The position numbers and the translations under genes were made by a program. Of a stretch of DNA of 64,000 bases, positions 8,924 through 61,266 are shown in pieces. Position 1 is the stretch's first letter, and every line of letters begins with the position of its first letter. Source of the stretch: Abditibacterium sp. (GTDB lineage: Bacteria; Armatimonadota; Abditibacteriia; Abditibacteriales; Abditibacteriaceae); the NCBI GenBank assembly GCA_965199495.1, contig CBDASK010000003.1, forward strand, positions 2,720,001 through 2,784,000. Reading direction: 5' to 3'. The notes under the pieces were generated by a model. It did not search any database. It saw only the letters and a program-made list of their open reading frames with translations, and was not told where the DNA came from.

Positions 8924-10255
8924 ATGGAAAAAATCACCATTATTGGCGGCGGCCTCGCCGGTTGCGAAGCCGCGTGGCAAGCTGCCAACGCGGGCGCGCA
9001 CGTTCGGCTTTACGAAATGCGCCCGCACGTTTCGACCAAAATTCACCAGACGCACGATTTAGCCGAATTGGTTTGCTCCAACTCGCTTAAATCGAACGAT
9101 TTGAGCAAAGCGTCGGGCTTGCTCAAATGGGAAATGCGCCGTTTGAATTCGCTGCTCATCGCCGCCGCCGACGCGTCGAGCGTTCCGGCGGGTTCGGCCT
9201 TAGCCGTTGACCGTCGCAAGTTCGCGGCTTATATTACGGAACATCTGGAAAATCATCCGAACGTCGAAATCGTGCGCGAAGAGGTGCAGGAAATTCCCGC
9301 CGAAGGTTTCGTTATCGTTGCGTCCGGCCCGCTTTCGAGCGAGCATTTGGCGGCTTCGATTCAACGCGAATTGGGCAGCGCATTCCTCAATTTCTTCGAT
9401 GCCGTCGCGCCGATTGTGGACGCCGACACTTTGGATTACGATACGCTATTTCTCGCTTCGCGTTATGACAAAGGCGACGCGGCCTATTGGAATTCGGCGC
9501 TGACCGAAGCCAAATACGACGAGTTTCGCAACGCTCTGCTCGAAGCCGAGAAATCCGAATCGCACAACGAAGACGACGCGCCTTATTTCGAGAGTTGTAT
9601 GCCCATCGAAGAACTCGCCAATCGCGGGCGCCTGACGATGCGTTTCGGGCCGTTACGCGGCGCCGGTTTAACCGATCCGAAAACCGACCGTTGGCCGTTC
9701 GCCGCCGTGCAACTGCGCGCCGAAAACGCCGATTGCACGATGTATAACTTGGTCGGTTTTCAGACGCGTCTCAAATGGGGCGAACAAACGCGCATTTTGC
9801 GGATGTTGCCCGGTCTGGAAAACGTTGAAATCGTGCGATTTGGCGTGATTCACAAGAACATCTTTCTCAATTCGCCCGCCGTGTTGAACCCGACTTTTGC
9901 GGCCAAACACCGCGCGAACTTGTTCTTCGCCGGACAGTTGACTGGCGTCGAAGGTTACGTCGAAAGTTCGGCGGCGGGCCTGATGGCCGGGCGCAACGCC
10001 GCGCGCGTGGCTGCTAATCGGGAGCCGCTCGTTTGGCCGCGCGAAACGGTTCTGGGCAGCTTGGCGCATTACATTACCGGAGCCGACGCCAAACATTTTC
10101 AGCCGATGAACTCGAACTGGGCTTTGCTTCCGCCGCTACCCGAACCGACCGATAAAAAGAAGTGGAAAAAAGATGAGAAGCCGCCGCTTCACGTCGAGCG
10201 CGGACAGGCGGCGCTGGAGCGGTTTGTCGAGCAGTTTGAGTTGGTTGCGGTATAA
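8924..10255 (+). CDS. trmFO: Folate/FAD-dependent tRNA (uracil-5) methyltransferase TrmFO
   Basis: IIGGGLAGCEAAWQ, YEMRP, AELVCSNS, YFESCMPIE, VGFQTRLKWGEQ, AGQLTGVEGYVES. Confidence 0.95.
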   Translation: MEKITIIGGGLAGCEAAWQAANAGAHVRLYEMRPHVSTKIHQTHDLAELVCSNSLKSNDLSKASGLLKWEMRRLNSLLIAAADASSVPAGSALAVDRRKFAAYITEHLENHPNVEIVREEVQEIPAEGFVIVASGPLSSEHLAASIQRELGSAFLNFFDAVAPIVDADTLDYDTLFLASRYDKGDAAYWNSALTEAKYDEFRNALLEAEKSESHNEDDAPYFESCMPIEELANRGRLTMRFGPLRGAGLTDPKTDRWPFAAVQLRAENADCTMYNLVGFQTRLKWGEQTRILRMLPGLENVEIVRFGVIHKNIFLNSPAVLNPTFAAKHRANLFFAGQLTGVEGYVESSAAGLMAGRNAARVAANREPLVWPRETVLGSLAHYITGADAKHFQPMNSNWALLPPLPEPTDKKKWKKDEKPPLHVERGQAALERFVEQFELVAV

Positions 10256-10275
10256 ATTCACATTGGGAGGATTGA

Positions 10276-10773
10276 ATGTTTATCAACGAGCAATATACCT
10301 TTCATTTCGTGTGTCTTGCGTGTCGCCGCTCGATTAAACGTGCGGCGAATATTCGTTGGGCTTCGCAAATGCGCGGCGAAGTCTGGAATACGCCTTCGAT
10401 TCGTTGTGGGCAGTGTGGCGAAGAATTGTTGTGTATGGGACGCAAATTCGCGGCGCCCAAACGCCGCGATGACGCGGGTTGGAAAAAATTGGCGTGGATG
10501 ATCGAAAACGGTTGGCGCGGTGGCAGTTGGCCGGTTACGCCCACGATGAATTTAAATCAAGTGCGCGAAAGCTTGCGCGCCGCGCGCGAGAAACGCATCG
10601 CCGTTTGGCAACGCGTGAAAGAGGAATCTTCTTTTGAAGAAGCCAAGCGCCGCGCACGTCGCAATGCGCGCAAAACTCGCACAGGGCGCAAACGCGCGCG
10701 GCTCGAACTCAAGGCGCAACGCCAATATCAAGACGCAGTTTTGGCGCGCGTGCCAGAGCGGAAACCCGCATGA
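10276..10773 (+). CDS. Hypothetical basic protein with CxxC...CxxC zinc ribbon
   Basis: GGAGG Shine-Dalgarno; CLACRRS, CGQCG, MGRKFAAPKRRD. Confidence 0.6.
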   Translation: MFINEQYTFHFVCLACRRSIKRAANIRWASQMRGEVWNTPSIRCGQCGEELLCMGRKFAAPKRRDDAGWKKLAWMIENGWRGGSWPVTPTMNLNQVRESLRAAREKRIAVWQRVKEESSFEEAKRRARRNARKTRTGRKRARLELKAQRQYQDAVLARVPERKPA

Positions 10774-16939: not shown

Positions 16940-19249
16940 ATGACTTCGCCCGCGCCCTCCATTCTTCTCGAAATTCAACACGACCAAAACGGACGCATTT
17001 ATTCGCACGTCCGCCAGAAATATCTCGTCGAAACGCCCGAAGAGCGCGTGCGCCAGGAATATCTGCTCGTTTTGCACAACGAATACGGTTATGCGCTCGA
17101 CCAGATTGATGAAGAAGTTGACCCGAATCAGAGCGGCAAACAGCGCGGAACCGCGCAGGCGCGCGCCGACTTCGCGATTTATCGGAGCGCCGCCGACAAG
17201 AACGGCGACGCCACGCCGCTTGTGATCGTCGAGTGCAAATCCGATAACGTCACCATCCGCGAAACCGATTATCAGCAGGGCGAAAACTATGCGCGCCTCA
17301 ACGAAGCGCCGTTTTTCGTGACGCACAATTCCAAAGAAACGCGCTTTTGGAAAGTTCTTAAAGACAAGCGGCCCGGCTATCGTCTGGAAATCTCCGACAT
17401 TCCGCACGCGCACGATTCGCAAAAAGAGATTGACGCGCTTCTAACCAAACTCAAAACCTTCAAAGAAGACGATTTCGCGTCGCTCTTGCACAAATGCCAC
17501 AACATCATTCGCAACCGCGACCATCTCGATCCGGCGGCGGCGTTTGATGAAATCGCCAAAATTCTTTTCGTCAAAGTGTGGGTCGAACGCGATATGCGCG
17601 CCAAAAAATTGCGTCTCAATCGCTTCACCACCGATTACATGGACAGCTTGCCCGGTCACGCGCCGCTCGATTTGCTGTTTACCGAAACCCGCAATTCCTA
17701 CAAAGGCGCGCACATTTTCCGCGACGACGAAAAGATCAATCTCAAAGCCGAAACGGGCCGCGCCATCGTCAAGGAACTGGAGGTTTACAATCTTTCCGAT
17801 ACTTCGGAAGATATTAAAGGCATCGCGTTTGAGCGGTTTCTGGGGCGCACATTCAGGGGCGAAATCGGCCAGTTTTTCACGCCGCGCTCGATTGTCGAAT
17901 TTATGATTCGCATGATTGACCCGCGCAAAGACGACATTATTTGCGATCCGGCGTCGGGTTCGGGCGGCTTTTTGATTCGCTTTTTCGAGATGGTGCGCCA
18001 ACAACAATTGGCGCAGGCCGACGCGCGTTATGCCGATTTCAAAGCGAAGGTCGAAGCCGACGTGGCTCTTAATGACGAGACGCGCGGCGCCCAACTGCGC
18101 GAGGAATATCGGGCGATTCAAATTCATCTGAAACAGCAGTTGGATCGTTTGGCCAACCACCAGATTTTCGGCACCGACGCCAATGACCGCATGGCGCGCA
18201 CCTCGAAAATGAACATGATTATGCACGGCGACGGACACGCCGGAGTGCATCACCGCAACGGATTTCTCAACGTCAACGGCATCTTCGAGGGCCGTTTTTC
18301 GGTGATTCTGACCAATCCGCCGTTTGGTTCGAGCGTCGAGGAAACCGACCGCGTGCCCGTCGAACCGATGGATCGCGAGGTCGAAGACCGCTACATCCAA
18401 CTCTACGGCAAACCCTACGAAGACGAACTGGCGCGCCAACGTAGCCACGCCGCCAGAGGCCCGAAAGATTCGGCGATTGCCAAAATGTTCGATCTGGGAC
18501 AGCGCGGCACCAAAATCAAAACCGAAATCCTGTTTATCGAACGCTGTCTGCGCTTGCTCCAGCCGGGCGGACGCTTGGGCATCGTGTTGCCCGAAGGCAT
18601 TTTTAACAATCCCTCGCTCGATTATGTGCGCGAGTATTGCGAAGACCGCGCGCAAATTTTGGCGGTCGTGTCGCTGCCGACCGAAGCCTTTGTCGCGTCG
18701 GGCGCCAGCGTCAAAACTTCGCTGCTTTTCCTGAAGAAGTTCACCGACGCCGAAAAACTCGATTACGACACGCAATTGCATCAGACGCGCTTGGAGATTC
18801 GCGGCAAACATCAAAGCCGCGTTGACCAAATGAACGCCGAATTTGACGCGCGCATTTTGGCCGCGCGCCAAACCAAAAACATGGGCGAGCGCAAACTCGC
18901 TGAATCCGAGCAGCGCGCGTTCAAGAAAGCTGAAGCCGCGCGGCAGGAGATCGAAACGCGCGCGCTTCACAAAGAACGTTTCGCTTATAACGTGTTTTTA
19001 TACGAAGCTCAAAACGTCGGTATCACCGCGACGGGCGACGACGATTGGAACGAACTGTTGCCCGCCAATGACGAAGCCAATCCGCGCGGTTTGCCGTCCG
19101 GTGTCACGGTTTCGACGTTGGAAATGTATCGTCTTTTCCGCGACGATGCGCCCGCCTTCGCCGCCGCGATGCAAGCGCAAATCGAAGCGCAAGCCGCCGA
19201 AACAGACGACGAAGACGAGTCCAACGCCGAAGAAGAGGAGGGCGCATGA
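16940..19249 (+). CDS. Fused restriction endonuclease (HsdR_N-like) / N6-adenine methyltransferase (type IIB/IIG-like)
   Basis: ETPEERVRQ, RADFAIY, IVECK, Q..NYA; GQFFTPR, DPASGSGGFL, TNPPFG, IVLPEG. Confidence 0.9.
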   Translation: MTSPAPSILLEIQHDQNGRIYSHVRQKYLVETPEERVRQEYLLVLHNEYGYALDQIDEEVDPNQSGKQRGTAQARADFAIYRSAADKNGDATPLVIVECKSDNVTIRETDYQQGENYARLNEAPFFVTHNSKETRFWKVLKDKRPGYRLEISDIPHAHDSQKEIDALLTKLKTFKEDDFASLLHKCHNIIRNRDHLDPAAAFDEIAKILFVKVWVERDMRAKKLRLNRFTTDYMDSLPGHAPLDLLFTETRNSYKGAHIFRDDEKINLKAETGRAIVKELEVYNLSDTSEDIKGIAFERFLGRTFRGEIGQFFTPRSIVEFMIRMIDPRKDDIICDPASGSGGFLIRFFEMVRQQQLAQADARYADFKAKVEADVALNDETRGAQLREEYRAIQIHLKQQLDRLANHQIFGTDANDRMARTSKMNMIMHGDGHAGVHHRNGFLNVNGIFEGRFSVILTNPPFGSSVEETDRVPVEPMDREVEDRYIQLYGKPYEDELARQRSHAARGPKDSAIAKMFDLGQRGTKIKTEILFIERCLRLLQPGGRLGIVLPEGIFNNPSLDYVREYCEDRAQILAVVSLPTEAFVASGASVKTSLLFLKKFTDAEKLDYDTQLHQTRLEIRGKHQSRVDQMNAEFDARILAARQTKNMGERKLAESEQRAFKKAEAARQEIETRALHKERFAYNVFLYEAQNVGITATGDDDWNELLPANDEANPRGLPSGVTVSTLEMYRLFRDDAPAFAAAMQAQIEAQAAETDDEDESNAEEEEGA

Positions 19250-35082: not shown

Positions 35083-35245
35083 AATAAGCCACAGAGTTCG
35101 CAGAGAACGCACAGAGGGGCACAGAAAAGCCCGAAGAAAATAAAAGAAGCAGAGAAGAGATATTTTGTATTTTTCTTTTACGCTCTATTTTCTTTGGGCT
35201 TTTCTGTGCCCCTCTGTGCGTTCTCTGCGAACTCTGTGGCTTATT
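35083..35245. repeat. Palindromic element built of (CA)CAGAG / CTCTG(TG) subrepeats
   Basis: AATAAGCCACAGAGTTCGCAGAGAACGCACAGAGGGGCACAGAAAAGCCC with its reverse complement ending at 35245. Confidence 0.9.
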
Positions 35246-35293
35246 TTTGGAAGTGAAGCCCCATTGCACACGCGATTGTTATGCTATTACGCG

Positions 35294-36292
35294 ATGCACC
35301 AAATCGAGCGTCTTATCGAAATAGATCGTCGCGTCCGCGCCGGACTGAAGCCACGCGCGGACGAGTTGGCCGACGAGTTCGAGGTATCGCGGCGCCAAAT
35401 CTATCTCGACCGCCGCAAACTCATCGAAATGGGCGCACCCCTAACGCGCGATGTTGCCGGTGGCTGGGTGTATAGCGAGCCAAACTGGATTTTGCCGTCG
35501 CAGTTTTTGCGCGAGGGCGAATTGCTGGCGTTCTTTTTGTCGGTCGAAATCGCGCGCAGCCAGGGCAACGCCGGATTGCAAACTCAATTGCAAAACGCCG
35601 CCAGCAAAATCGCTAAAAGTCTGGGCGACATTATTTCGGTGGATTTAAACGCGTTGCGCAATTCGACGAGCTATTCTTTATCGCCCGCCGCCAGCGTTGA
35701 CGCCGAATTGCACGCGCACATCTGTCGCGCCATCGCCGGGCGCCGCAAGCTGCGCATGAGCTATTTCACCGCGTCGAGCGGGCGCCAGAGCGAGCGCATT
35801 ATTCATCCGTATCATCTGTATATGGCGCGCGGCGAGTGGATTTTGATCGCCCACGACCAGAGCAAAACCGCCGATGACGCGCCGATTCGCTGTTTCAACA
35901 TCGCGCGCATTTCGGGTTTGCAAGAACTCGTCGGGCGCGACGCAAACTTCCAAATCGCGCCCGATTTCGACGCCAAAACCTACATCCGCGAGATGTTCAC
36001 CGCCGAGCGCGGCGACGAACTGCACGCCGTCGCCATCTGGTTCGACGCGCCCCAAGCCCGCTATATCCGCGAGCGCGTCTGGCACGAAAACCAGACCATC
36101 GAAGAACATTCCGACGAAAGCCTGACGCTGCATTTTCGCGCGAGCGGCCTGAACGAAGTCGCGCGCTGGACGCTGAGTTATGGCCGTCACGCCCGCGTGG
36201 TTTCGCCGCCGCAACTGCGCGCCATCGTCGCCGATCACGCCCGCGAGTTGGCCGCGATTTACGCCGATGTCACGCCGCAAGAACAGTTATAA
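35294..36292 (+). CDS. HTH-WYL-WCX transcriptional regulator
   Basis: ELADEFEVSRRQIYLD, ERIIHPYHL....WILIAH, RCFNIARI, WTLSYG....VSPPQLR. Confidence 0.9.
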   Translation: MHQIERLIEIDRRVRAGLKPRADELADEFEVSRRQIYLDRRKLIEMGAPLTRDVAGGWVYSEPNWILPSQFLREGELLAFFLSVEIARSQGNAGLQTQLQNAASKIAKSLGDIISVDLNALRNSTSYSLSPAASVDAELHAHICRAIAGRRKLRMSYFTASSGRQSERIIHPYHLYMARGEWILIAHDQSKTADDAPIRCFNIARISGLQELVGRDANFQIAPDFDAKTYIREMFTAERGDELHAVAIWFDAPQARYIRERVWHENQTIEEHSDESLTLHFRASGLNEVARWTLSYGRHARVVSPPQLRAIVADHARELAAIYADVTPQEQL

Positions 36293-36302
36293 TTTTTCAC
36301 CT

Positions 36303-37049
36303 ATGCGACTTCATTTTCAACTTTCGCCCAATCTCCAGTCGGTGGATTTCAACTACCATCATTTTTTGGCGGGCGCCGTCCACCGGTGGCTCGGCCCCGA
36401 CAACGCTTATCACGACGGCCTGAGTTTGTATAGCGTGGGCAACTTGCAGGGCGGTTTCGCCGTTCGCGGCCACGCTACAAGCAGCCACGGCCAAGGTCAC
36501 GGCGGCGCCTTGAGCTTCCGTAGCGGCGCGCGCTGGCACATTTCGGCGCCCGATACCGATGGCGGCACCGAGTTTCTGGCCCAAATCGCCAACGCCGCGC
36601 TGCAAAATCCGAGCGTGTGTTGCGGCATGGAAGTCGTCGAAATTTCGAGCGAGAACACGCCCGAATTCGGCGCCAAACGCGTGTTTCGCGCGCAAAGCCC
36701 GATCTTCATCCGGGGTGACAAAGACGGCGAACTCGACCCGCACATCCTCTTCGACAACCCGCAGGCGAGCGCCTATCTGACCCAAACGCTGCGCCACAAA
36801 CTCGACAAAGCCGGATTAAACCATCTCAGCGAAAGCGTGACTGTGCGCTTCGATTTGAGTTATCCGTCGCCCAAAACGCGCTTAATCCGCATTAAAGAGG
36901 GTTTCGACCAAAACGGCAACCGCAAAGATTTCTGCAAACGCGCCAGCGTGTGCCCGGTAATTATTGAGGGCGACGCGGAAGCCGTGCGTTTCGCCTGGAA
37001 CGTCGGCGCGGGCAATCTCACCGGCATGGGTTTCGGGAGTCTGGTTTAA
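36303..37049 (+). CDS. cas6: CRISPR endoribonuclease Cas6
   Basis: HRWLGPDN.YHDGLSLYS, SPIFIR, FAWNVGAGNLTGMGFG G-rich loop. Confidence 0.9.
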   Translation: MRLHFQLSPNLQSVDFNYHHFLAGAVHRWLGPDNAYHDGLSLYSVGNLQGGFAVRGHATSSHGQGHGGALSFRSGARWHISAPDTDGGTEFLAQIANAALQNPSVCCGMEVVEISSENTPEFGAKRVFRAQSPIFIRGDKDGELDPHILFDNPQASAYLTQTLRHKLDKAGLNHLSESVTVRFDLSYPSPKTRLIRIKEGFDQNGNRKDFCKRASVCPVIIEGDAEAVRFAWNVGAGNLTGMGFGSLV

Positions 37050-37073
37050 TGGAACTTCTCAAAGAACGTAAAG

Positions 37074-37170
37074 GTTCCTGCGGCCCGAAGACTCGCGCCA
37101 CGACCTGCCGTATTGAAGAGTTCCTACAGGGACGGTCTTCGCGACTGGATATGGGTAGGGCCGCAGGTCA
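37074..37170 (-). ncRNA. Putative structured RNA, unit 1 (DUF3800-associated)
   Basis: 10-bp closing stem CCTGCGGCCC/GGGCCGCAGG; flanks GTT and TCA shared with unit 2; strand inferred from the adjacent gene. Confidence 0.55.
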
Positions 37171-37247
37171 ATTTTTTCCCTTCTTTAGCTCGAAGTCCAG
37201 TCAAGCGGAACTTTCGACGGTTGCGCGGCATCTTAAACAGCGTAATT

Positions 37248-37356
37248 GTTCCTGCGATCCGAATCTCCGCTCCGGCAGTAGCCGGGCTGACGATACGTTG
37301 CCTCTCGGCGTATGCTGCTTGTCAACAGCCTTCAGTCGCGATAGGATCGCAGGTCA
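37248..37356 (-). ncRNA. Putative structured RNA, unit 2 (DUF3800-associated)
   Basis: 10-bp closing stem CCTGCGATCC/GGATCGCAGG, compensatory relative to unit 1; several internal hairpins. Confidence 0.55.
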
Positions 37357-37375
37357 CCCTCTATTCGCTTCGTTT

Positions 37376-37711
37376 TCAGCGAGTGACGATCAAATTATTT
37401 GTGTCGCTCGCCATCTCCTTCAAAAACTGGCGCAATGCCGAAATTTTGATTTTCCCCATCGTCTGCCTTCGCAACGTGTAGGCCATAATATCGGCCAACT
37501 GAATCATATTACTGGTCTGAGATTCTCTAACTCGCGCATTGAAGCGGCTTCCAGGATGAATTTCTCGGTGACACCGCTTCAATGCGGTTTCAAACGCCTG
37601 TTGCGCGCTCTTGCCTTCATTTTCGGTGTCGCACCACAAATCTCGCACAGGAGCAGGTTCTTGGAGTCTGGTATGAGGAATTACTTTTTTAAGGAACAGA
37701 AGGCGGTTTTT
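37376..37711 (-). pseudogene. C-terminal remnant of a DUF3800-family protein
   Basis: ESQTSNMIQLADIMAY motif; frame closed by TGA TGA at 37717-37712; no N-terminal DESG-type motif found. Confidence 0.6.
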
Positions 37712-37741
37712 TCATCAACAGGAAAAACAAGCGTTGCGACC

Positions 37742-37770
37742 TTGACAAGCATAACGCGACATCCTAAGAT
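37742..37770 (+). promoter_or_regulatory. Near-consensus sigma70 promoter
   Basis: TTGACA (37742-37747), 17 nt, TAAGAT (37765-37770), then GAAGGAGGAG Shine-Dalgarno. Confidence 0.8.
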
Positions 37771-37795
37771 TATCTCCGAAGGAGGAGAATATCCA

Positions 37796-37978
37796 ATGAA
37801 TATGCGTTTGGAAATCGAGACGCAAGTTCTGATTTTTGCGCTCTTGGGATTGGTTGCAGTCATCGTTGCGGTTCTGTTTTTTCAGTCCAATGCCACACGG
37901 CTCCAAACAGTAGCCAAAAGTGGTCAGCAACAAATCTCGATAGATGTAGAACGGCCCATAACCAACAATACCAAATGA
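37796..37978 (+). CDS. 60-aa single-TM peptide (candidate CRISPR-repressed toxin)
   Basis: Strong promoter and SD; MNMRLEIETQVLIFALLGLVAVIVAVLFFQSNATRLQ... Confidence 0.65.
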   Translation: MNMRLEIETQVLIFALLGLVAVIVAVLFFQSNATRLQTVAKSGQQQISIDVERPITNNTK

Positions 37979-38020
37979 TCAAAACACTGCATTTTTCTGT
38001 GATTGGGTTGCTTGCAACTC

Positions 38021-38099
38021 GTTTAATCGAACCTTTGAGGTATTGAAATATGAAAATGCGGTTGATGAGAAGATCGGGAAGATATTCGATGTTTTCCCG
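38021..38099 (+). ncRNA. crRNA-like regulatory RNA: solitary diverged repeat, guide and 3' hairpin
   Basis: GTTTAATCGAACCTTTGAGGTATTGAAAT (38021-38049) keeps the array's ATTGAAAT handle; following bases match 37796-37810 except positions 6 and 12; hairpin at 38075-38099. Confidence 0.75.
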
Positions 38100-38150
38100 G
38101 CTTCGATTCTTAATTAAAGCCTCTATTTTCAGCAGAGAAATCTTCGTGCT

Positions 38151-39806
38151 ATGAACTCATTTAACCTCACCGGCCATTACATTCTTGATGCCTCACTCGC
38201 GGCCTCTGCCGCGTTGCTTGAAGACTACGACAAACGCAGCATCGAAACTCCGCAGCAAATGAGCGGAGCAGATATTCTGCGCGCGTTAGAGCTGGCGGAG
38301 CAACATTTTTACTCCCGTCAAATCTCGAAAGAAAATGATGGCGATTTGCGACCGCTTTTCTACTTCTTGTTACAAGAAATTTTGCCCGGCTCACCTTGGG
38401 ATCAAGTCAAGAGTGGTGCTGTTTCCGAAGGGATGCAACGTAAATTCGCCGAATACATCGCAGAAGCGAAGAGCGCGTTGCTTCAACCTGCTATCGGCAA
38501 ATGTTACCTTTCAGGCCAAGAAGGGCACTTGCTCGTTTCCAAGTCAAATCTACCGATGTTGGCTTCGTCAGGGGAACGCCCAAACTGCTTTCCCAACTTG
38601 AGCGATGGTTTGACCATCAACGGGTATTTGGCGCTGGCCGTTTTGCTCTCTCCGCTCGGCATCGAAAAGACGCTTAACGACAAAGGAAAGGGCGGGCAGA
38701 ACTTGGTGTATCATGCGACGGATTGGCGCTTTATGGTCTCCATTGCAAAGTCGAATATTGATCGCATTCGCCGCTTGTTGGCTTCCAATTCCATTGAGGC
38801 GTTCCGCGCTCGTCATTATCCGAAGTTTCGGCGTGGCTCGTGGAAGAAAGGGCTGCAAACCCTGATGCACGCGACGCAAAACATTCCTGCTGATGCACGT
38901 CCGCAAGTCGTCATCTGGAGCTTCAACGCGTCCAACCAAACCTGTCGTTACGAGTGCCGCGAAACTTCCGACGCGTTTCTCATCATCGCTGCGCAACGAC
39001 TTTTGCAGCCTGCGCTCTACCGCGAATTACTCGGAGTTTCCGATTATGTCGCCCGGCTCATTTTGCAGAGCCAACCGATCATTGGCGCGAGCTTGATGCG
39101 CGATAAGAAGCATCTCGAAATGCGTCCGGGCTGGCCCTTTCAACGATTCTACGCCGAAAAGGTGCTTTTCATGTCTCCAACTTTACTTAACTCCATCGAA
39201 GATGCGGCGCTGGCACTTAGCGCCGACAAAGAGGCGATTAACTATTGTCTTTACGAAGAGAAGCGCCCCAACGTCCGCGTTTTGGCAGATCGCTACAAAC
39301 TCGCGCCAGAAATTGTAGCGCGCTTTGCCAATGCGCCCTCGCAATGGCCGGATTATCTGCGTGCCGCGTTGCTATGGGCCGACAAAGGTAATGCTTTTGA
39401 GCCACGACAAAAAGTCGTGTTCCAGCCGCAAGAACTCGAAGTTAAGTTCAAGGAAATCGCGCCGCGTCTGGCCCACATCGGGTCTTATAAGCTCGCGGCG
39501 CGATTACTCAATCAATACAATCCGCGCGCCTACCGACAAGCATGGATTCGACTTATCTCGCGCAAAGCCGCGACATGGGACGACTTTTTATTCTTCAACC
39601 CCATAGAAGAAGCGTTTGGCAATGGCGACTACGCCCGCACTTCTACGCTTCGCCACTACCTCGTTGCGTATTTGTTGGCTTGCGTTCACCAACAACCCCC
39701 AAACGCGACGGCTTCCGAACCTAATGAAGCCGAAATCGAACGCGACGTGCAGCAAATCGAACGCGAAATTCCCATCGCATCTGAAAACGAAGAGGAACTC
39801 ACCTAA
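38151..39806 (+). CDS. cas8: Divergent Cas8 large subunit (Cas8b1/Cst1-like)
   Basis: Position before cas7; FNLTGHYILDA, CYLSG...LPMLASS..NCFP...SPLG pattern. Confidence 0.7.
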   Translation: MNSFNLTGHYILDASLAASAALLEDYDKRSIETPQQMSGADILRALELAEQHFYSRQISKENDGDLRPLFYFLLQEILPGSPWDQVKSGAVSEGMQRKFAEYIAEAKSALLQPAIGKCYLSGQEGHLLVSKSNLPMLASSGERPNCFPNLSDGLTINGYLALAVLLSPLGIEKTLNDKGKGGQNLVYHATDWRFMVSIAKSNIDRIRRLLASNSIEAFRARHYPKFRRGSWKKGLQTLMHATQNIPADARPQVVIWSFNASNQTCRYECRETSDAFLIIAAQRLLQPALYRELLGVSDYVARLILQSQPIIGASLMRDKKHLEMRPGWPFQRFYAEKVLFMSPTLLNSIEDAALALSADKEAINYCLYEEKRPNVRVLADRYKLAPEIVARFANAPSQWPDYLRAALLWADKGNAFEPRQKVVFQPQELEVKFKEIAPRLAHIGSYKLAARLLNQYNPRAYRQAWIRLISRKAATWDDFLFFNPIEEAFGNGDYARTSTLRHYLVAYLLACVHQQPPNATASEPNEAEIERDVQQIEREIPIASENEEELT

Positions 39807-46475: not shown

Positions 46476-49400
46476 GTTTTAATCGGGTCTTGTGAGATTG
46501 AAATCTACGAGTTCAACGCGGTGAATCCAAGTCGCAGGACGGTTTTAATCGGGTCTTGTGAGATTGAAATCCTTGGTCGAGGGTGGTCAAGGTTTGGCTG
46601 TGGGTTGTTTTAATCGGGTCTTGTGAGATTGAAATTAATTTTATTATAGGCGCTTGTAGCGCCTCGAACGTTTTAATCGGGTCTTGTGAGATTGAAATAA
46701 ATTTCATCCGGCAACTTATATTCATCGGCGATCGTTTTAATCGGGTCTTGTGAGATTGAAATGAACCCATCTTTTCGGTTCCGAAGTTATCCAACAGGTT
46801 TTAATCGGGTCTTGTGAGATTGAAATTCTCGATCTTGGCGCTATGAAAGGTTCGCTTGTCGGGTTTTAATCGGGTCTTGTGAGATTGAAATGGCTTGATG
46901 CTCGTTCGGGATGCCCTTCGGGAAATTGGGTTTTAATCGGGTCTTGTGAGATTGAAATCACGCTCCCCTTCGCAGTAAAGCTCCGGGCGCCGAATGTTTT
47001 AATCGGGTCTTGTGAGATTGAAATTTCTCTTCGCTTCGCCCTTAGATGCCGAAGGCAGGGGTTTTAATCGGGTCTTGTGAGATTGAAATTTAGGGTTTTA
47101 ATCTCCAAAAGGTTAAGCTCCGGGGAAGTTTTAATCGGGTCTTGTGAGATTGAAATTTATATTTAGTCGAAACTTCCCGCCAGCGTTGCGGTTTTAATCG
47201 GGTCTTGTGAGATTGAAATGAGATTCCAAACGCCTTGAATCACGGCGGGAATTCCGTTTTAATCGGGTCTTGTGAGATTGAAATGAGCCTTCCGAAATCG
47301 CTTGGGATTCGCTTCCGTCGGTTTTAATCGGGTCTTGTGAGATTGAAATAATGCCGACGCCGCGCTCATGCCCATTCCAACGCCCAGGTTTTAATCGGGT
47401 CTTGTGAGATTGAAATACGCCCCAAACCTCTTTGGGATATTCGCGGTTCAACGGTTTTAATCGGGTCTTGTGAGATTGAAATACTGGAAAGCCAGAGCTT
47501 CAACAGTCGTGAGTCGGGTTTTAATCGGGTCTTGTGAGATTGAAATACAGATCGAACGCGAACGCGGGCGGCGACGGCACGCCAGTTTTAATCGGGTCTT
47601 GTGAGATTGAAATGAGATTCACAAGTGGGCGCGGCGTCTGCGCTGGGACGTTTTAATCGGGTCTTGTGAGATTGAAATGTCCAAGGGCGACAAAATGACG
47701 TGCCGCGTGCCACCCCGGTTTTAATCGGGTCTTGTGAGATTGAAATACGGTCTTCCAGAACGCGCGGCTGATACTCTTGGCGGTTTTAATCGGGTCTTGT
47801 GAGATTGAAATAAAATCGCAACTTATCGCCGACGAAGAAGCCGCGCAGTTTTAATCGGGTCTTGTGAGATTGAAATCGACATCGAAAGCCTCTTGTTTAG
47901 AAGCAGCAAGGAAGTTTTAATCGGGTCTTGTGAGATTGAAATGATTAAAACAATCGCCACCGACACAGGATTAAGCGAGTTTTAATCGGGTCTTGTGAGA
48001 TTGAAATACGCAACTCACTGATTCAGCATTTTCGTCAGTTTCCGGGTTTTAATCGGGTCTTGTGAGATTGAAATGTCTCAAAATGGACGATGACGAACAC
48101 GAGGCGAAAAGTTTTAATCGGGTCTTGTGAGATTGAAATAAATCTGCGAGCAGTCGGAAGAGTGGGCGCACTCGGTGGTTTTAATCGGGTCTTGTGAGAT
48201 TGAAATATTTTACGACATCCAGAGTCGCAAGGCCGGTTTCGAGGTTTTAATCGGGTCTTGTGAGATTGAAATGTTTTAGATGCCCACGCCGGAATGAACA
48301 CGCCACGAGTTTTAATCGGGTCTTGTGAGATTGAAATCCCAAATTCTCACCAATGCCTCCACAAAATGGTCGTTTTAATCGGGTCTTGTGAGATTGAAAT
48401 TGAGCGAAGATAATAACAAGCGTCCGGTCATACTCGTTTTAATCGGGTCTTGTGAGATTGAAATTTCCCTCAAGGTATGATTGCCAACGGGGACGGCAAG
48501 TTTTAATCGGGTCTTGTGAGATTGAAATTTTGGTGAATCGCTCCAATGAAAAACCAAGGGACGGAGTTTTAATCGGGTCTTGTGAGATTGAAATATGGTT
48601 TGGCCCACGCAACGCTAACAATCAAAAACTAAGTTTTAATCGGGTCTTGTGAGATTGAAATCACCTAAAGCACAAGGAACTGAACTATGGATTTAATGTT
48701 TTAATCGGGTCTTGTGAGATTGAAATCGTTGCCCTGCGTTTGCACGCCCGGCACGCGGGCACGGGTTTTAATCGGGTCTTGTGAGATTGAAATTTCGAGC
48801 GAATCGCCGCCGCCGGGCGCGTTGTTCGGGGTTTTAATCGGGTCTTGTGAGATTGAAATGAACTGATGGCGTAGCCGACATTGAGCGTCATCGAAAGTTT
48901 TAATCGGGTCTTGTGAGATTGAAATCTACAAAATTCGCAGTAGTAGCCCACGAGCCGAGTTTTAATCGGGTCTTGTGAGATTGAAATAAAGCCCCAGTCG
49001 CGGTGTCGCGGCCCCATTAAAACGTTTTAATCGGGTCTTGTGAGATTGAAATTGATAGCCGCTCCGCCAGCGCGCCCACTCTTCCTTCGTTTTAATCGGG
49101 TCTTGTGAGATTGAAATAACTCGATCTCGTCGGGCACGAATCGCTTGCCGTTAGGTTTTAATCGGGTCTTGTGAGATTGAAATCCCTCTGGCAAGTCGCT
49201 CTCGGTTTCGCTCGTCACCGTTTTAATCGGGTCTTGTGAGATTGAAATCAAGAGGCCGGGCCGGGCCACGCGGCGTTGATGGCGAGTTTTAATCGGGTCT
49301 TGTGAGATTGAAATTGCGATAAACCAAGTCGGCACTGTCAAAGCCCGTCGCGTTTTAATCGGGTCTTGTGAGATTGAAATATTCGACCAATGCTGCGCAA

Positions 49401-52400
49401 GCGTGGAGTGTGCGTTTTAATCGGGTCTTGTGAGATTGAAATTCGGTTTCCTTGCGACGCGCGTTTTCTTGGTCGCACGTTTTAATCGGGTCTTGTGAGA
49501 TTGAAATTCTCGTAGAACGCCGAGCCGACGATGACAAACGAGTTTTAATCGGGTCTTGTGAGATTGAAATCCCGCAACAGGCGCGCATTGCGCGACGTAT
49601 CTCGTCGTTTTAATCGGGTCTTGTGAGATTGAAATTTTGCTCGACCTTGGCGCGCCCGGCGTCAATTTGCGGTTTTAATCGGGTCTTGTGAGATTGAAAT
49701 GATTTCTCGCACATGAGACAACACAATCGCTTTGTGTGTTTTAATCGGGTCTTGTGAGATTGAAATACGGTGACGGGGGCACATGGCGGCGAATTGGCGC
49801 TGTGTTTTAATCGGGTCTTGTGAGATTGAAATGGCGGGCACTCGCTTCGCTATCACCGGGGCCGCTTTTTGTTTTAATCGGGTCTTGTGAGATTGAAATC
49901 AAAGTGCGGGCGACACGTTGAAAGCGGCGGGCGTGCGTTTTAATCGGGTCTTGTGAGATTGAAATTGCACATAATCAGAGACATAACCCAACGCCACAAG
50001 CGGTTTTAATCGGGTCTTGTGAGATTGAAATGACTTCACAAGCGAGCGCAAGCGCGCTTCCTCATCCTGGTTTTAATCGGGTCTTGTGAGATTGAAATTG
50101 CGCTGACAGACTGGCAGGAATGAATTTGGTATGAGTTTTAATCGGGTCTTGTGAGATTGAAATAGGCCGACGCGCTGGTGTCGGCGTCTCGTTTTCTCAG
50201 TTTTAATCGGGTCTTGTGAGATTGAAATCGATGCGCGGATTGGCGATGCGGCGCACGATGGGAGCCGTTTTAATCGGGTCTTGTGAGATTGAAATCGATT
50301 TGCAAGAAATACGATCTGGTGTATTACGGTGGTTTTAATCGGGTCTTGTGAGATTGAAATGCTTATAAGGCGACCAGCCGTTTTTGTTCATCAAATGTTT
50401 TAATCGGGTCTTGTGAGATTGAAATTCATGGAACACGAGCGGCCAATTTCGGAGCGCTATTGTTTTAATCGGGTCTTGTGAGATTGAAATTGGAAGTCGC
50501 CGTAGAAACGCGCAAATACGAATATCGTTTTAATCGGGTCTTGTGAGATTGAAATACAACAGCGACATTAATCGCATCGAAGTCGGCAAAGGTTTTAATC
50601 GGGTCTTGTGAGATTGAAATAAAACAGCATATCCGCTTCAACGGAAACAATAGTTGTTTTAATCGGGTCTTGTGAGATTGAAATCAAACGCCGCCGCACT
50701 CCGACATCCGCGAGATTCAGTTTTAATCGGGTCTTGTGAGATTGAAATTAGCGTTTTCGCGTTTTGTCCACTTCTGCGGCGGCGCGTTTTAATCGGGTCT
50801 TGTGAGATTGAAATCGCTCGCCTTCGTTCCAGTTCCTGCGCCTCGGCTTCGAGTTTTAATCGGGTCTTGTGAGATTGAAATATTCTGCGCGGTCGGCGTC
50901 CTGCGCCAGTTGAAACGGTTTTAATCGGGTCTTGTGAGATTGAAATCGTTTTTGCGCAATGTTTTCGCGAATTTGTGGACGGCGGTTTTAATCGGGTCTT
51001 GTGAGATTGAAATACGGCACGGTTCGCGGCGCCCCGGTGCGCCGAAACGTGTTTTAATCGGGTCTTGTGAGATTGAAATACTGTTCCAACTTGTCTTCGT
51101 AAACTTGCGAATTGAGTTTTAATCGGGTCTTGTGAGATTGAAATTCATCAATTTGAACAAGGCGGCGTTTTCCTTTCATGGGGGTTTTAATCGGGTCTTG
51201 TGAGATTGAAATACCTCACCTGATATTCAAAGACGTGGCTCCTAAAGAGTTTTAATCGGGTCTTGTGAGATTGAAATTCATGCAACTCGAATGCGACGAG
51301 GCGGACGCGCTCGGTTTTAATCGGGTCTTGTGAGATTGAAATAATGCCACGCTATCAAGGAGGGCGGGCGCCAATGCGTGTTTTAATCGGGTCTTGTGAG
51401 ATTGAAATCTTATAGAGAACGCGCGTGACGCGCGCAGTAATCAAGGTTTTAATCGGGTCTTGTGAGATTGAAATGATGGAAGAGATGGTTTTTCGCGAAG
51501 GTTACGAAGCGGGTTTTAATCGGGTCTTGTGAGATTGAAATGTTTCCCCCACTATTCCCGGCTTTACGCCGGATGAGTTTTAATCGGGTCTTGTGAGATT
51601 GAAATCCCACTGCGCCACCGTGACAAGGCCCGCATCGCTCCACGGTTTTAATCGGGTCTTGTGAGATTGAAATCTGCTACATCGTCGCGCGAAGGCAATC
51701 GCTCGATGAAGTTTTAATCGGGTCTTGTGAGATTGAAATGTTCGTCGGTCGAGACGCGCGCGCATAAAATACAACGTTTTAATCGGGTCTTGTGAGATTG
51801 AAATCCTGGGCCTTGACAGTGCCTTCGGGCAAAGGGAAGGGGTTTTAATCGGGTCTTGTGAGATTGAAATCTGGGCGCACGCAATCGCGCCCGGCGCGAT
51901 GTCGTAGTTTTAATCGGGTCTTGTGAGATTGAAATTTTTCATCACGGGCGGCAACTCGCGCAAACGCGCGAGTTTTAATCGGGTCTTGTGAGATTGAAAT
52001 AACAGATTCTCGAAGCCGGTCGCCGATGGGATTTACGTTTTAATCGGGTCTTGTGAGATTGAAATAGACAACCTGCCGCTTGCGCCCGTTTGCACGCGCC
52101 AAGGTTTTAATCGGGTCTTGTGAGATTGAAATGCTCGGTGTCCCCGACCTGCCCGCTATCGAGGTAGTAAGTTTTAATCGGGTCTTGTGAGATTGAAATC
52201 TGTCGCTGTCGAGTTCGGTGTGCAACACGGCGTCGGTTTTAATCGGGTCTTGTGAGATTGAAATCGCGCGTAAAACGTGCGAAAGCCACCGAACTTATTG
52301 GTTTTAATCGGGTCTTGTGAGATTGAAATGCGCGCCGTTCCAGTCGGTCGCCTCGCAACTCGTTAGTTTTAATCGGGTCTTGTGAGATTGAAATATTTAT

Positions 52401-55027
52401 GCGAACGCATCGCGGCGTATCTGGTTTTGGGGTTTTAATCGGGTCTTGTGAGATTGAAATTTGGATGGCGCGACGAGCGCACGACTCAGGGCGAAGTTTT
52501 AATCGGGTCTTGTGAGATTGAAATTTTGAATGGGATTGATCGAGAGAGAAAAGCGGGCAACGTTTTAATCGGGTCTTGTGAGATTGAAATGAGCAACTCG
52601 TCAAGCTCAAGCTGTCGCGCAAGTTGCGTTTTAATCGGGTCTTGTGAGATTGAAATAACTGCACCGCGACAAAGACGGCAACCCGAATTTGAAGTTTTAA
52701 TCGGGTCTTGTGAGATTGAAATTCATAGTAATAATCGCCTTGTCGGTCGTCCGATGTTGGTTTTAATCGGGTCTTGTGAGATTGAAATAAGTGTCGGACA
52801 TGACGACCGCGCGGCGTTTGGCGCGCGGTTTTAATCGGGTCTTGTGAGATTGAAATTGCCGCCCGCATCATTCACTTGAACCGATTCCAGGGCGTTTTAA
52901 TCGGGTCTTGTGAGATTGAAATTCACCTTTACGAGCGCGCGCTACTGCGCAAGGCGATGTTTTAATCGGGTCTTGTGAGATTGAAATAACGTCGCCGTTG
53001 TCCCAGCGCTGGGACGAAAGCGGGTTTTAATCGGGTCTTGTGAGATTGAAATCTTATGAATATCCTCAAGCCCGTCGTCTGTCTGGCGCGTTTTAATCGG
53101 GTCTTGTGAGATTGAAATAGAGCTGTGTCATCGGCGCGTTTCGCAAATATCTCCGCGTTTTAATCGGGTCTTGTGAGATTGAAATATTTGTCGGTGGCCA
53201 CCAACCTGACGGTCGAGCAAGGCGTTTTAATCGGGTCTTGTGAGATTGAAATGCTTCTTTTCGTCGTCAATAACGTCGCCGAGAGCTGTTTTAATCGGGT
53301 CTTGTGAGATTGAAATGACGTTCGAGCGGGCGACATTATAACCGGAGACGGGCGGTTTTAATCGGGTCTTGTGAGATTGAAATATTTGCCGGGGCTTCCG
53401 GCGCCGATTCGCGCGGCGGGTTTTAATCGGGTCTTGTGAGATTGAAATGAGATTCCAAACGCCTTGAATCACGGCGGGAATTCCGCGTTTTAATCGGGTC
53501 TTGTGAGATTGAAATTATTGATAGGCGCGCGACTTCTGCAACTGGAAGCGTTGTTTTAATCGGGTCTTGTGAGATTGAAATAAATCAACGCTCCATATCC
53601 GCGTCCATCGCTTCGGGAGTTTTAATCGGGTCTTGTGAGATTGAAATTTTAATCGCGCGACTTATCGCCGGGTGATTATGTCCGTTTTAATCGGGTCTTG
53701 TGAGATTGAAATGTTTTCTCGACGCCCGCCACGATGCCCGAAAACTGGGTTTTAATCGGGTCTTGTGAGATTGAAATGCTTTGCACGGCACGCGGCACCC
53801 TGCGCCAGTGCGGGTTTTAATCGGGTCTTGTGAGATTGAAATTTTTAACAACATTATTGTAACAATGTCCCGGTTTTTTGTTTTAATCGGGTCTTGTGAG
53901 ATTGAAATGGAAGGTTGAAATGGAGGAGGCTGCATCCGCCCTAAAAGTTTTAATCGGGTCTTGTGAGATTGAAATTAACTTGCGTCGTCGTAGGAGATGT
54001 TTTGGCCGCGATGTTTTAATCGGGTCTTGTGAGATTGAAATCTCGACAAAGGTCGCCTTTGCGTCGTAGGGCAAACCGGGTTTTAATCGGGTCTTGTGAG
54101 ATTGAAATATGGAACCGGAGTCGAGACTAAAACTCGCTACTTCAGTTTTAATCGGGTCTTGTGAGATTGAAATTGATGTCCACTCAGGAGCGAGTGGCGA
54201 TTTTTGGCAGGTTTTAATCGGGTCTTGTGAGATTGAAATACCAATAGACAAAGGGCAATCCTTGGCCACGAGTATTGGTTTTAATCGGGTCTTGTGAGAT
54301 TGAAATGATTCACGCACGTTGGCGGTCTTATCGCCGCTTTGAGTTTTAATCGGGTCTTGTGAGATTGAAATGCCTCTTTGTCACTCTTGCAATTCTTTCA
54401 AAGGCGGTTTTAATCGGGTCTTGTGAGATTGAAATTGCGTAACGTAGCCAGTCGCGCCGGGGTCGTCGGCCGTTTTAATCGGGTCTTGTGAGATTGAAAT
54501 CACGCTCGATGCCCTGCGCAGCGTCAACCTCAATTCGAGTTTTAATCGGGTCTTGTGAGATTGAAATACGTTTTGGGTTCGGCGAAAGACATAGCCGAAG
54601 CAAGTTTTAATCGGGTCTTGTGAGATTGAAATAATGAACGCGGGGTTTGGAAGCGACGGGCTTAACCGGTGTTTTAATCGGGTCTTGTGAGATTGAAATT
54701 TGGCGAAAGTCGGCGGCGTCTAATAACCATTTGTGGGTTTTAATCGGGTCTTGTGAGATTGAAATGACAGTTGGACGCCGACCCGATGTTGGCCGTTGGC
54801 GAGTTTTAATCGGGTCTTGTGAGATTGAAATTGACAAATCGCCAAACTCTTTTCGATCCATTCCCGAAGTTTTAATCGGGTCTTGTGAGATTGAAATGCT
54901 GAACGGCACCGGGCACGCGGCGCAATACGCGCATGTTTTAATCGGGTCTTGTGAGATTGAAATCATTAGCCGCTGCCGGTCATTCGACGCTGCTCGTTGT
55001 TTTAATCGGGTCTTGTGAGATTGAAAT
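46476..55027 (+). CRISPR. CRISPR array, 29-nt repeat GTTTTAATCGGGTCTTGTGAGATTGAAAT, about 131 repeats and 130 spacers (about 33-39 nt)
   Basis: Manual count; orientation from leader position and ATTGAAAT 3' end. Confidence 0.98.
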
Positions 55028-60534: not shown

Positions 60535-61266
60535 ATGAAAATCTCACTTTCTCTTGTGGCGGCCAGCGCCGCCTTATTGGTTCCGCTTGTCGCCCACGCA
60601 CAGCCACGCCCGCCCGCACAGCTCAATCCCGGCGTGGCCAATGCGGCGGCGCAACGTTCGCAGCAAAACGATATTTTGTATTGGTATAACCTGTTGCCAC
60701 CGCAAATCTTTGGCGCGATGGGCAACGCCGACCGGCTCGAATTGCTTCAAAGCAAAGACGCGATTTACGATAAGAATCGCGGTTTCATCGAAGTGATGGC
60801 GCCCGGCGACCCCAACCAAAACGATGTCGAAAAGCTGCAGGTCAAGCTCTATCGTGGCAATCAGGGTTTGATGATCGCCGTCAGTCAGATCGTGTGGAAT
60901 CAGCCGCGCGTCAAGGGCGCATTGGCCTTCTTCGCGCTGGACAGTACCGGCCAGTTGATGGATGTCACCAAGCAGGTTTTTCCCTACGATTTGATGGCAG
61001 AGCAGGGCACGCCACAGAGTCAACCCAACGCTCCCGATGCTAACGCGCCCGACGGTAACGCGCCCGCCACGGATGGCCAAAACCAGAACAGTGCGCCGCC
61101 GATCAACGCTTATCTTTCGGCCAGAGGAACCACAATTGAGACGGGCGTTCCCGAAACGAAAAATAGTGGCGCGCAGTATGTTTGGGATAACCAAACCTTC
61201 GTCAAACGCGAAGCCAATGGCGATAACGCGCGCAACGATGCGCCCGCAGACGACGAGCAACCATAA
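60535..61266 (+). CDS. Secreted hypothetical protein
   Basis: Signal peptide ending AHA; downstream terminator. Confidence 0.7.
   Translation: MKISLSLVAASAALLVPLVAHAQPRPPAQLNPGVANAAAQRSQQNDILYWYNLLPPQIFGAMGNADRLELLQSKDAIYDKNRGFIEVMAPGDPNQNDVEKLQVKLYRGNQGLMIAVSQIVWNQPRVKGALAFFALDSTGQLMDVTKQVFPYDLMAEQGTPQSQPNAPDANAPDGNAPATDGQNQNSAPPINAYLSARGTTIETGVPETKNSGAQYVWDNQTFVKREANGDNARNDAPADDEQP

Follow-up and report, generated by a model that had tools for sequence, protein, structure and literature searches.

In the 64-kb stretch of DNA analysed here (hereafter the window; G000:C3:2720001-2784000, from the 4.8-Mb genome G000, whose closest relatives are titled Abditibacterium sp.), the gap of 1.1 kb between cas6b and cas8b of a type I-B CRISPR-Cas locus holds a compact element, made of a promoter, a gene for a 60-amino-acid (60-aa) membrane peptide, a solitary degenerate repeat (pseudo-repeat), a short guide and a hairpin (Table 1). 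Its anatomy, combined with the published behaviour of CreA, CreR and crlRNA guides, makes it likely that an RNA of this kind directs Cascade to the start of the peptide gene and thereby represses the promoter at 37742; as far as sequence can tell, the features of CreA, CreR and crlRNA elements that were examined are found in it, the one that defines the 3' end being the least certain. CRISPR self-regulation by a degenerate guide is already known, and it is the cargo, an orphan peptide, that is new.

The pseudo-repeat stands out when the window is searched for the repeat skeleton AATCG-N8-16-ATTGAAAT, which gives 132 matches: the 131 repeats of the array and a single solitary one at 38025-38049 on the array strand (chance 0.14). 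This only match outside the array is the 29-nucleotide (nt) repeat variant with its handle that an initial annotation of the window, made from the letters alone, had pointed to. It sits between cas6b and cas8b, on the strand of the cas genes and the array, and its handle is kept 8/8 in both G000 and the related genome G004, with the stem ACCT/AGGT just before it and a predicted Cas6 cut between 38041 and 38042. A loose pattern yielded 25 further matches in the G000 genome, none of them repeat-like, and Rfam returned for the pseudo-repeat only CRISPR-DR2, with an E-value of 0.85 that is far below the cut-off. In metagenome contigs an 18-mer of the pseudo-repeat occurs at 34 loci, six of which (L027, L042, L045, L046, L048 and L051) are ordinary arrays of a sister repeat, that of L051 differing from the pseudo-repeat in one body base and in the first positions. 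Because these genuine array repeats are nearly identical to it, the stem of the pseudo-repeat would thus be a natural variant accepted by some Cas6b proteins. None of the metagenomic loci has a guide of the ATGAA type; two candidates for related elements were rejected, L058 because the word falls within a gene by chance and L052 because it has no target.

Directly after the pseudo-repeat, the guide is identical to the first five codons of the peptide gene at 13 of 15 positions, mismatched at 6 and 12, and shows nothing useful past 15, just as first annotated. The common word, ATGAANATGCGNTTG, occurs exactly twice in the 64 kb (at 37796 and 38050), and 0/100 shuffles matched. Elsewhere in the 4.8 Mb there are two sites with CCN and guide positions 1-5 and 7-11, compared to about 0.6 expected; neither lies at a gene start and both were treated as chance. 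The guide is same-sense to the messenger RNA (mRNA), so it could pair only with the DNA template strand. This bears directly on a classical type I toxin-antitoxin system, in which the mRNA of a membrane toxin would be silenced by an antisense RNA independently of Cascade: the peptide has the size and the single transmembrane helix typical of type I toxins, but an RNA with a same-sense 15-nt match cannot pair with that mRNA, and the promoter scan found no minus-strand promoter over the open reading frame (ORF), which leaves such a system with a negligible probability. The guide is followed by a hairpin, real but larger than the 38075-38099 first given for it (it spans 38069-38104). In G004 the hairpin has another sequence at the same distance, starting after 20 free bases (19 in G000), and guide start to hairpin end measures 55 nt in both. 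Since no U-run follows it in G004, it probably serves to define the 3' end or to stabilise the RNA and not to terminate transcription.

The protospacer-adjacent motif (PAM) was approached by taking spacers from G000 (130), G004 (231) and G008 (7) and comparing them with the G000 genome and with the loci of its relatives, which gave seven protospacers at 85% identity or more. The five located outside the host chromosome (in other genomes or in contig C2) are all flanked by CC (CCT, CCC, CCC, CCG and CCA), and the two in the G000 chromosome by AGC (a 37/37 self-match) and CGT; if CC is taken to occur at about 0.08 per site, five CC flanks out of seven have a probability near 5e-5. Five weaker matches (at most 79% identity; ACC, TCC, ACG, CAA and TCT) were dropped as chance, and no protospacers were found in phage and plasmid collections. 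These flanks point to CCN as the PAM of the system, which is also that of the Clostridioides difficile I-B system (in the accessible text of PMC8406132). The CCA in front of the target fits because the system's PAM is read as CCN and CCA itself was seen directly; the check on array protospacers proposed with the initial annotation thus does not exclude it. The 37/37 self-match belongs to spacer 48860-48896 and lies at C3:593119-593155, in a gene for a 280-aa membrane protein, where the non-CCN flank AGC would explain why such a spacer is tolerated. Two G004 spacers match contig C2 of G000 (64,557 bases) at 18320-18355 (32/36, CCC) and 61214-61249 (33/36, CCG), and this contig could be a phage or plasmid belonging to the genus.

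Relatives of Cas8 are present in 6 of 61 related genomes, close ones only in G004 (87% identity) and G008 (83%); none turned up in metagenome contigs, and genome contigs gave two loci. G004 carries the whole module, and what it shares with G000 is confined to islands: the promoter hexamers are identical at 11 of 12 positions and the 17-nt spacer between them at 6 of 17, with the PAM, pseudo-repeat and guide on the conserved side, and the upstream DNA and the stretch from hairpin to cas8 on the other (Table 1). As 78% of the synonymous sites in the peptide gene differ between the two genomes, so that unconstrained DNA would be expected to be near-random, these islands (hexamers, PAM, pseudo-repeat and guide) appear to be under selection. 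Within the guide, positions 1-5, 7-11 and 13-15 are identical in the two genomes and the differences fall exactly on 6 and 12, for which the chance, given two changes among 15 sites, is 1 in 105. The comparison of guide and target in a homologous locus, which had been proposed as a check, therefore finds the paired positions kept. The G004 guide matches its own target at 17 of 18 positions, with a mismatch at 12 only and no useful identity beyond 18.

This pattern of conservation weighs on three other explanations of the element. A Cas6 site inside a probable operon could act as a processing signal only, cutting the peptide mRNA from the cas8 message or stabilising one of them with no guide role, and the good conservation of the pseudo-repeat and its handle would suit such a function; we consider it quite improbable, as it leaves unexplained, in both genomes, the 15-nt conservation at paired positions and the CCA-flanked match 254 nt upstream. 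Alternatively, the unit could be the decaying remnant of an old array end or of a self-targeting spacer, with no present function. Degenerate solitary repeats are common near arrays, and the array also holds a perfect self-matching spacer, but the selective conservation against a saturated background, the retention of promoter and PAM, and a hairpin that changed sequence yet kept its place make this very hard to believe. Finally, the initial annotation had itself raised an old duplication of the translation start, whereby the second ATGAA.ATGCG.TTG would open a leader ORF coupling translation into cas8. A 34-aa ORF at 38050-38154 does end at the cas8 start of G000, with an ATGA overlap, GAGG stands 9 nt ahead of the guide's ATG, and the G000 cas8 has no good Shine-Dalgarno sequence of its own. 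In G004, however, the ORF has only 6 codons, and its stop lies 80 nt short of a cas8 that has its own GGAGG. With 34 codons in one genome and 6 in the other, this ORF is not conserved, so coding cannot explain the conservation of the guide; moreover, the sequence ahead of the guide's ATG is a genuine CRISPR repeat type, and an unused copy would not stay identical with synonymous sites near saturation. A duplicated start is thus very unlikely.

The cargo itself reads as a real gene. The initial annotation was right in placing a 60-aa transmembrane ORF at 37796, which is conserved in G004, but it missed that these 60 codons close, in frame, a longer open frame of 309 aa (37049-37978). The peptide has a hydrophobic stretch at about residues 9-29 and a polar, well conserved C-terminal half. 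Between G000 and G004 there are 19, 11 and 34 differences at codon positions 1, 2 and 3, and the proportion of nonsynonymous differences (pN) is 0.23 as opposed to 0.78 for synonymous ones (pS; sites saturated), a pattern of purifying selection on the peptide. The longer frame has no Pfam match and is stored as a protein in public sets (P0002). It looks like a shadow frame that is fused to the real 60-aa gene and probably owes its existence to a decayed DUF3800 gene on the minus strand, in which case the public 309-aa ORF is probably mis-called and hides the smaller one. The DUF3800 remnant is not part of the peptide/guide module.

That the initial annotation did not recognise a known family in the peptide agrees with all searches made with it. 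A word-based search gave no homologues, and a hidden Markov model search of 1.84 billion representatives gave only three matches, namely the G004 peptide, the 309-aa frame of the window and a repetitive 347-aa sequence that was rejected as low-complexity. No Pfam family (KilAC included) came at or near cut-off for the G000 or the G004 peptide, with E-values considered up to 1, PADLOC had no match to it, and an Atlas search returned only small archaeal transmembrane proteins (best score 0.90), which is uninformative. Hok, TisB and Fst form the toxin class of type I toxin-antitoxin systems, and the peptide resembles these in form only (size and single transmembrane helix), as no sequence similarity to type I toxins was found. 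Those toxins are hydrophobic single-helix peptides of up to about 60 aa silenced by RNA, by an antisense RNA acting on the mRNA (accessible text of PMC12737573), whereas any silencing here would come from a guide that targets DNA within Cascade. Toxicity of the peptide is possible, although we would sooner bet against it than for it.

The promoter TTGACA-17-TAAGAT, the strong Shine-Dalgarno sequence and the CCA before the ORF were all found where the initial annotation had put them. The transcription start site (TSS) is predicted at about 37777, and the G004 promoter, TTGACA-17-TAAAAT, is even closer to consensus (11/12). In G000 the promoter at 37742 is the sole plus-strand promoter-like site close upstream of cas8, a weaker one being present at 37319 inside the DUF3800 remnant; in G004 the whole cas6-cas8 gap has one such site. 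Simple scans of 37770-38151 revealed no other plus-strand promoter-like site and no conserved terminator. Because neither was found ahead of cas8, the 37742 promoter is probably shared by the peptide gene, the guide and the cas8 operon as one unit.

The processing, binding, repression, read-through into cas8 and role of the peptide that we infer would run as follows. The promoter at 37742-37770 would transcribe the peptide gene, the pseudo-repeat and the guide, and probably continue into cas8-cas7-cas5-cas3. Cas6 would cut the pseudo-repeat 8 nt before 38050, leaving an RNA in which the handle ATTGAAAT is followed by about 19 free guide bases and by the 3' hairpin. Loaded in Cascade, this guide would recognise the CCA at 37793 and pair with the template strand of 37796-37810, bases 6 and 12 being flipped out; as pairing would end after 15 nt (18 in G004), the R-loop would stay incomplete and Cas3 would not be licensed. 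Cascade sitting at about +17 to +35 of the transcript would then block RNA polymerase, closing a loop in which Cascade and guide keep expression low for the peptide, for the guide itself and probably for the cas8-cas3 genes. Repression would ease upon loss of Cascade, its block by an anti-CRISPR, or its titration by the canonical CRISPR RNAs (crRNAs) of the array, which would compete with the guide for it.

A number of observations weigh against this interpretation. The target covers the start codon and is thus downstream of the predicted TSS, outside the hexamers and not upstream of them, whereas the targets published for CreA and crlRNAs fall within promoter elements or just upstream of these (in the accessible parts of 10.1101/2023.03.10.532045 and 10.1101/2024.12.27.630466). 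The stem of the pseudo-repeat differs from that of the host's own repeat, so that its acceptance by the host Cas6 is assumed; the hairpin leaves the guide only about 19 free bases for the putative assembly of a I-B Cascade; and there is no convincing second pseudo-repeat, the best ungapped candidate, at 38091, matching at 14 of 29 positions. The promoter scan and sequence inspection found no promoter of the guide's own, read-through into cas8 is argued from what simple scans failed to find, and a terminator-like hairpin lies inside the peptide ORF at 37803-37824, though it is not conserved in G004. As for conservation, G000 versus G004 is the only independent comparison, G008 lacks the module in spite of a Cas8 83% identical, and positions 6 and 12 of the target are third codon positions, which renders the target side uninformative. 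G008 has a possible degenerate repeat 70 nt ahead of cas8, for which no target was found (best seed run 7).

Among known systems, the element is in the first place reminiscent of CreTA of Haloarcula hispanica and Halobacterium hubeiense (accessible parts of PMC8501985 and 10.1101/2023.03.10.532045, as for all sources compared here). Both belong to subtype I-B, and both have a degenerate repeat with an 8-nt handle followed by a guide whose positions 1-5 and 7-11 match beside a PAM with 6 and 12 free; CreA guides act through precisely this seed, mutations at 6 or 12 being tolerated (PMC8501985). The H. hispanica CreTA also has a single pseudo-repeat. CreTA modules are found either in the cas6-cas8 gap or immediately ahead of the cas operon, and the position of the H. 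hispanica creTA between cas6 and cas8, as here, which the initial annotation had stated, is confirmed in 10.1101/2023.03.10.532045. There CreA co-represses the toxin promoter and Pcas8, similar to the repression of peptide and cas8 proposed here. The CreTA toxin, however, is a tiny RNA with a strong Shine-Dalgarno sequence and tandem rare codons that sequesters transfer RNA (tRNA), whereas the cargo here is a conserved gene of 60 codons; no tandem rare-codon pair is common to the G000 and G004 peptide genes. In addition, the CreTA target is in the promoter rather than past the predicted TSS on the start codon, its PAM is TTC and its promoters archaeal instead of a CCN PAM, and creA has its own promoter, divergent from that of the toxin, whilst guide and cargo here are co-directional and probably co-transcribed. 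Lacking a rare-codon mini-ORF, the element is not a CreTA.

CreR (10.1101/2023.03.10.532045) is similar in that a degenerate mini-CRISPR guides the effector to its own cas promoter through partial complementarity, and its logic includes competition by array crRNAs and relief by anti-CRISPRs. As described in the accessible text, CreR stands alone without a coupled cargo, and the conserved peptide gene between target and guide means that the element is not a pure CreR. The CrePA of Acinetobacter baylyi ADP1 (10.1101/2024.01.05.574328) does have a protein cargo under a CreA guide, in a module located in a cas intergenic region, and its guide matches over 19 nt with position 12 off beside the PAM of the subtype, much as here. 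Its cargo is a KilAC-domain protein of 103 aa that halts cell division, its subtype I-F and its pseudo-repeats two, as opposed to a peptide without KilAC or other domain, subtype I-B and one pseudo-repeat, so that the element is not a CrePA. The order of parts (target from 37793, cargo at 37796-37978, repeat unit at 38021-38104, cas8 from 38151) is that of the I-C CRISIS/crlRNA systems (10.1101/2024.12.27.630466), where target, cargo, solitary repeat unit and effector cas genes also follow one another, with a single pseudo-repeat, a short guide, an RNA that ends in a 3' hairpin, and mismatches concentrated at 6, 12 and the PAM-distal end. The legend of Extended Data Fig. 14 in that source mentions I-B and I-F cases. 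CRISIS cargoes are multi-domain defence enzymes, some with transmembrane partners, and not a 60-aa peptide; the targets are 37-46 bp upstream of the TSS and not at about +17; and the RNA is processed by Cas5c with an 11-nt handle, in place of the predicted Cas6 cut and 8-nt handle here. The element consequently differs from published cases in its cargo, in a target past the TSS on the start codon, and in the probable co-transcription of guide, cargo and effector genes.

Table 1. Features of the window and, where compared, their identity between G000 and G004
Feature	Position	Strand	Details	Identity G000/G004
WYL/WCX/HTH regulator	35165-36292		directly upstream of cas6; kept in G004 and G011	
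cas6 (Cas6b)	36303-37049	+	Pfam Cas_Cas6_C 1.3e-8; PADLOC Cas6b 1.9e-61, residues 42-288	
DUF3800 gene remnant	37376-37648	-	C-terminal part only; Pfam DUF3800 E 7e-4, below curated cut-off	
Upstream DNA				55/142
Sigma-70-type promoter TTGACA-17-TAAGAT	37742-37770	+	10/12 to consensus	
-35 hexamer	37742-37747	+		6/6
17-nt promoter spacer				6/17
-10 hexamer	37765-37770	+		5/6
Shine-Dalgarno AGGAGG	37780-37785	+	10 nt ahead of ATG	
PAM CCA	37793-37795	+	on strand identical to guide; about +17 from predicted TSS	3/3
Target (protospacer)	37796-37810	+	also first five codons of peptide gene; 254 nt upstream of guide	
60-aa single-transmembrane peptide gene	37796-37978	+	ATG at 37796; same-length G004 orthologue, 62% identical	
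Palindrome GTTGCTTGCAAC	38007-38018	+	conserved; directly 5' of pseudo-repeat	
Pseudo-repeat (psiR)	38021-38049	+	GTTT.AATCG, own stem ACCT/AGGT, 8-nt handle ATTGAAAT	25/29
Guide (psiS), single-stranded, about 19 nt	38050-38068	+	predicted to pair with template strand of 37796-37810	13/15 (positions 1-15)
3' hairpin of guide RNA	38069-38104	+	12 + 4 pairs; -19.9 kcal/mol for 38050-38110; z -2.5	
Hairpin to cas8				19/46
cas8b	38151-39806	+	heads cas8-cas7-cas5-cas3-cas4-cas1-cas2, to 46337	
CRISPR array	46476-55027	+	131 identical 29-nt repeats, 130 spacers	

The surroundings of the element read, by Pfam and PADLOC, as a complete type I-B CRISPR-Cas locus (cas6b-cas8b-cas7b-cas5-cas3-cas4-cas1-cas2 and array), the Cas8b match in this typing being weak (E 0.0096). 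The true start of cas6 is likely codon 42 of the ORF at 36180-37049, because relatives begin with MRLHF and the PADLOC match covers residues 42-288. The Cas6 of G000 shares 72% identity with its counterparts in G009 and G003 and only 61% with that of G004, whereas its Cas8 is nearest to that of G004; this discordance makes the locus a mosaic with a break between cas6 and cas8, implying recombination within the gap. The regulator gene directly upstream of cas6 offers the locus a second candidate for its control, in this case a protein. The palindrome beside the pseudo-repeat is ATTGCTTGCAAT in G004, both outer positions having changed together, and could be a small hairpin with a CUUG loop or a protein-binding site. 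In the G000 array one 36-nt spacer is present twice (47220-47255 and 53449-53484); the G004 array is interrupted by an insertion of about 1 kb with transposase-like frames (L009 15860-16890) and holds an element of about 172 nt (L060 ~10190-10365) with many copies elsewhere in the G004 genome.

The gap between cas6 and cas8 is occupied in other ways in the family, where Cas6 homologues are present in 13 of 27 genomes. The 1.5 kb after cas6 were scanned in 20 loci for a handle-like word plus a partial target, and words for the handle and the repeat start were looked for in loci L090-L106. Apart from the element of G000 and G004, a different and unrelated mini-CRISPR is present at two loci, G010:C10 (L103 2369-3180) and G011:C20 (L094 2328-3186), where it is flanked by a DUF3800 gene on the minus strand and by the downstream cas genes. 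It consists in each case of two half-degenerate repeats, the first ending in GCGA(A)TTGAAAT and the second beginning with TTTAATCGGGCGC, whose stem halves pair across the guide and co-vary between these two genomes (folds with z of -2.3 and -4.4). For the G010 guide there is a CCA-flanked site matching at 14 of 15 paired positions within 18, located 13 nt upstream of the -35 of the divergent DUF3800 promoter (TTGACA-17-CATAAT), and the match of the G011 guide is weaker (positions 1-5 and 7-10, PAM CCG). Intact DUF3800 genes occupy the same place in G008, G010 and G011, with two intact minus-strand copies in the G008 gap (L008 1271-1942 and 2180-2815); the G004 gap has no DUF3800 gene and that of G000 the C-terminal remnant only. 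DUF3800 may hence be a CRISPR-supervised cargo too, and the cas6-cas8 slot looks like a hot spot that repeatedly hosts guide-and-cargo circuits, which lends support to the guide interpretation of the G000 element.

The element, if it works in this manner, would extend CRISPR self-regulation by degenerate guides to a phylum that has hardly been studied, the Abditibacteriota, and to a bacterial I-B system whose PAM is CCN. It offers a clean natural example of a guide that changed only at positions 6 and 12, the ones published as non-pairing, and a closed-loop layout with target, cargo, guide and effector genes behind what is probably one promoter. It also nominates a very small new cargo, a possible CRISPR-repressed membrane toxin. 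Titles and abstracts, the scope of our literature search (subscription-only papers and the figures and supplements of preprints fall outside it), include none describing a small membrane peptide as CRISPR-repressed cargo. It is tempting, albeit rather doubtful, to see in the orphan peptide a membrane-acting toxin or abortive-infection effector silenced by Cascade, and so a new class of CRISPR-repressed toxin. Were this true, a type-I-toxin-like peptide would take the place of the tRNA-sequestering RNA or KilAC protein, toxin, guide and effector genes would make up one transcription unit under one self-repressed promoter, and the loss or inhibition of Cascade would release more Cascade and a killer peptide at once.

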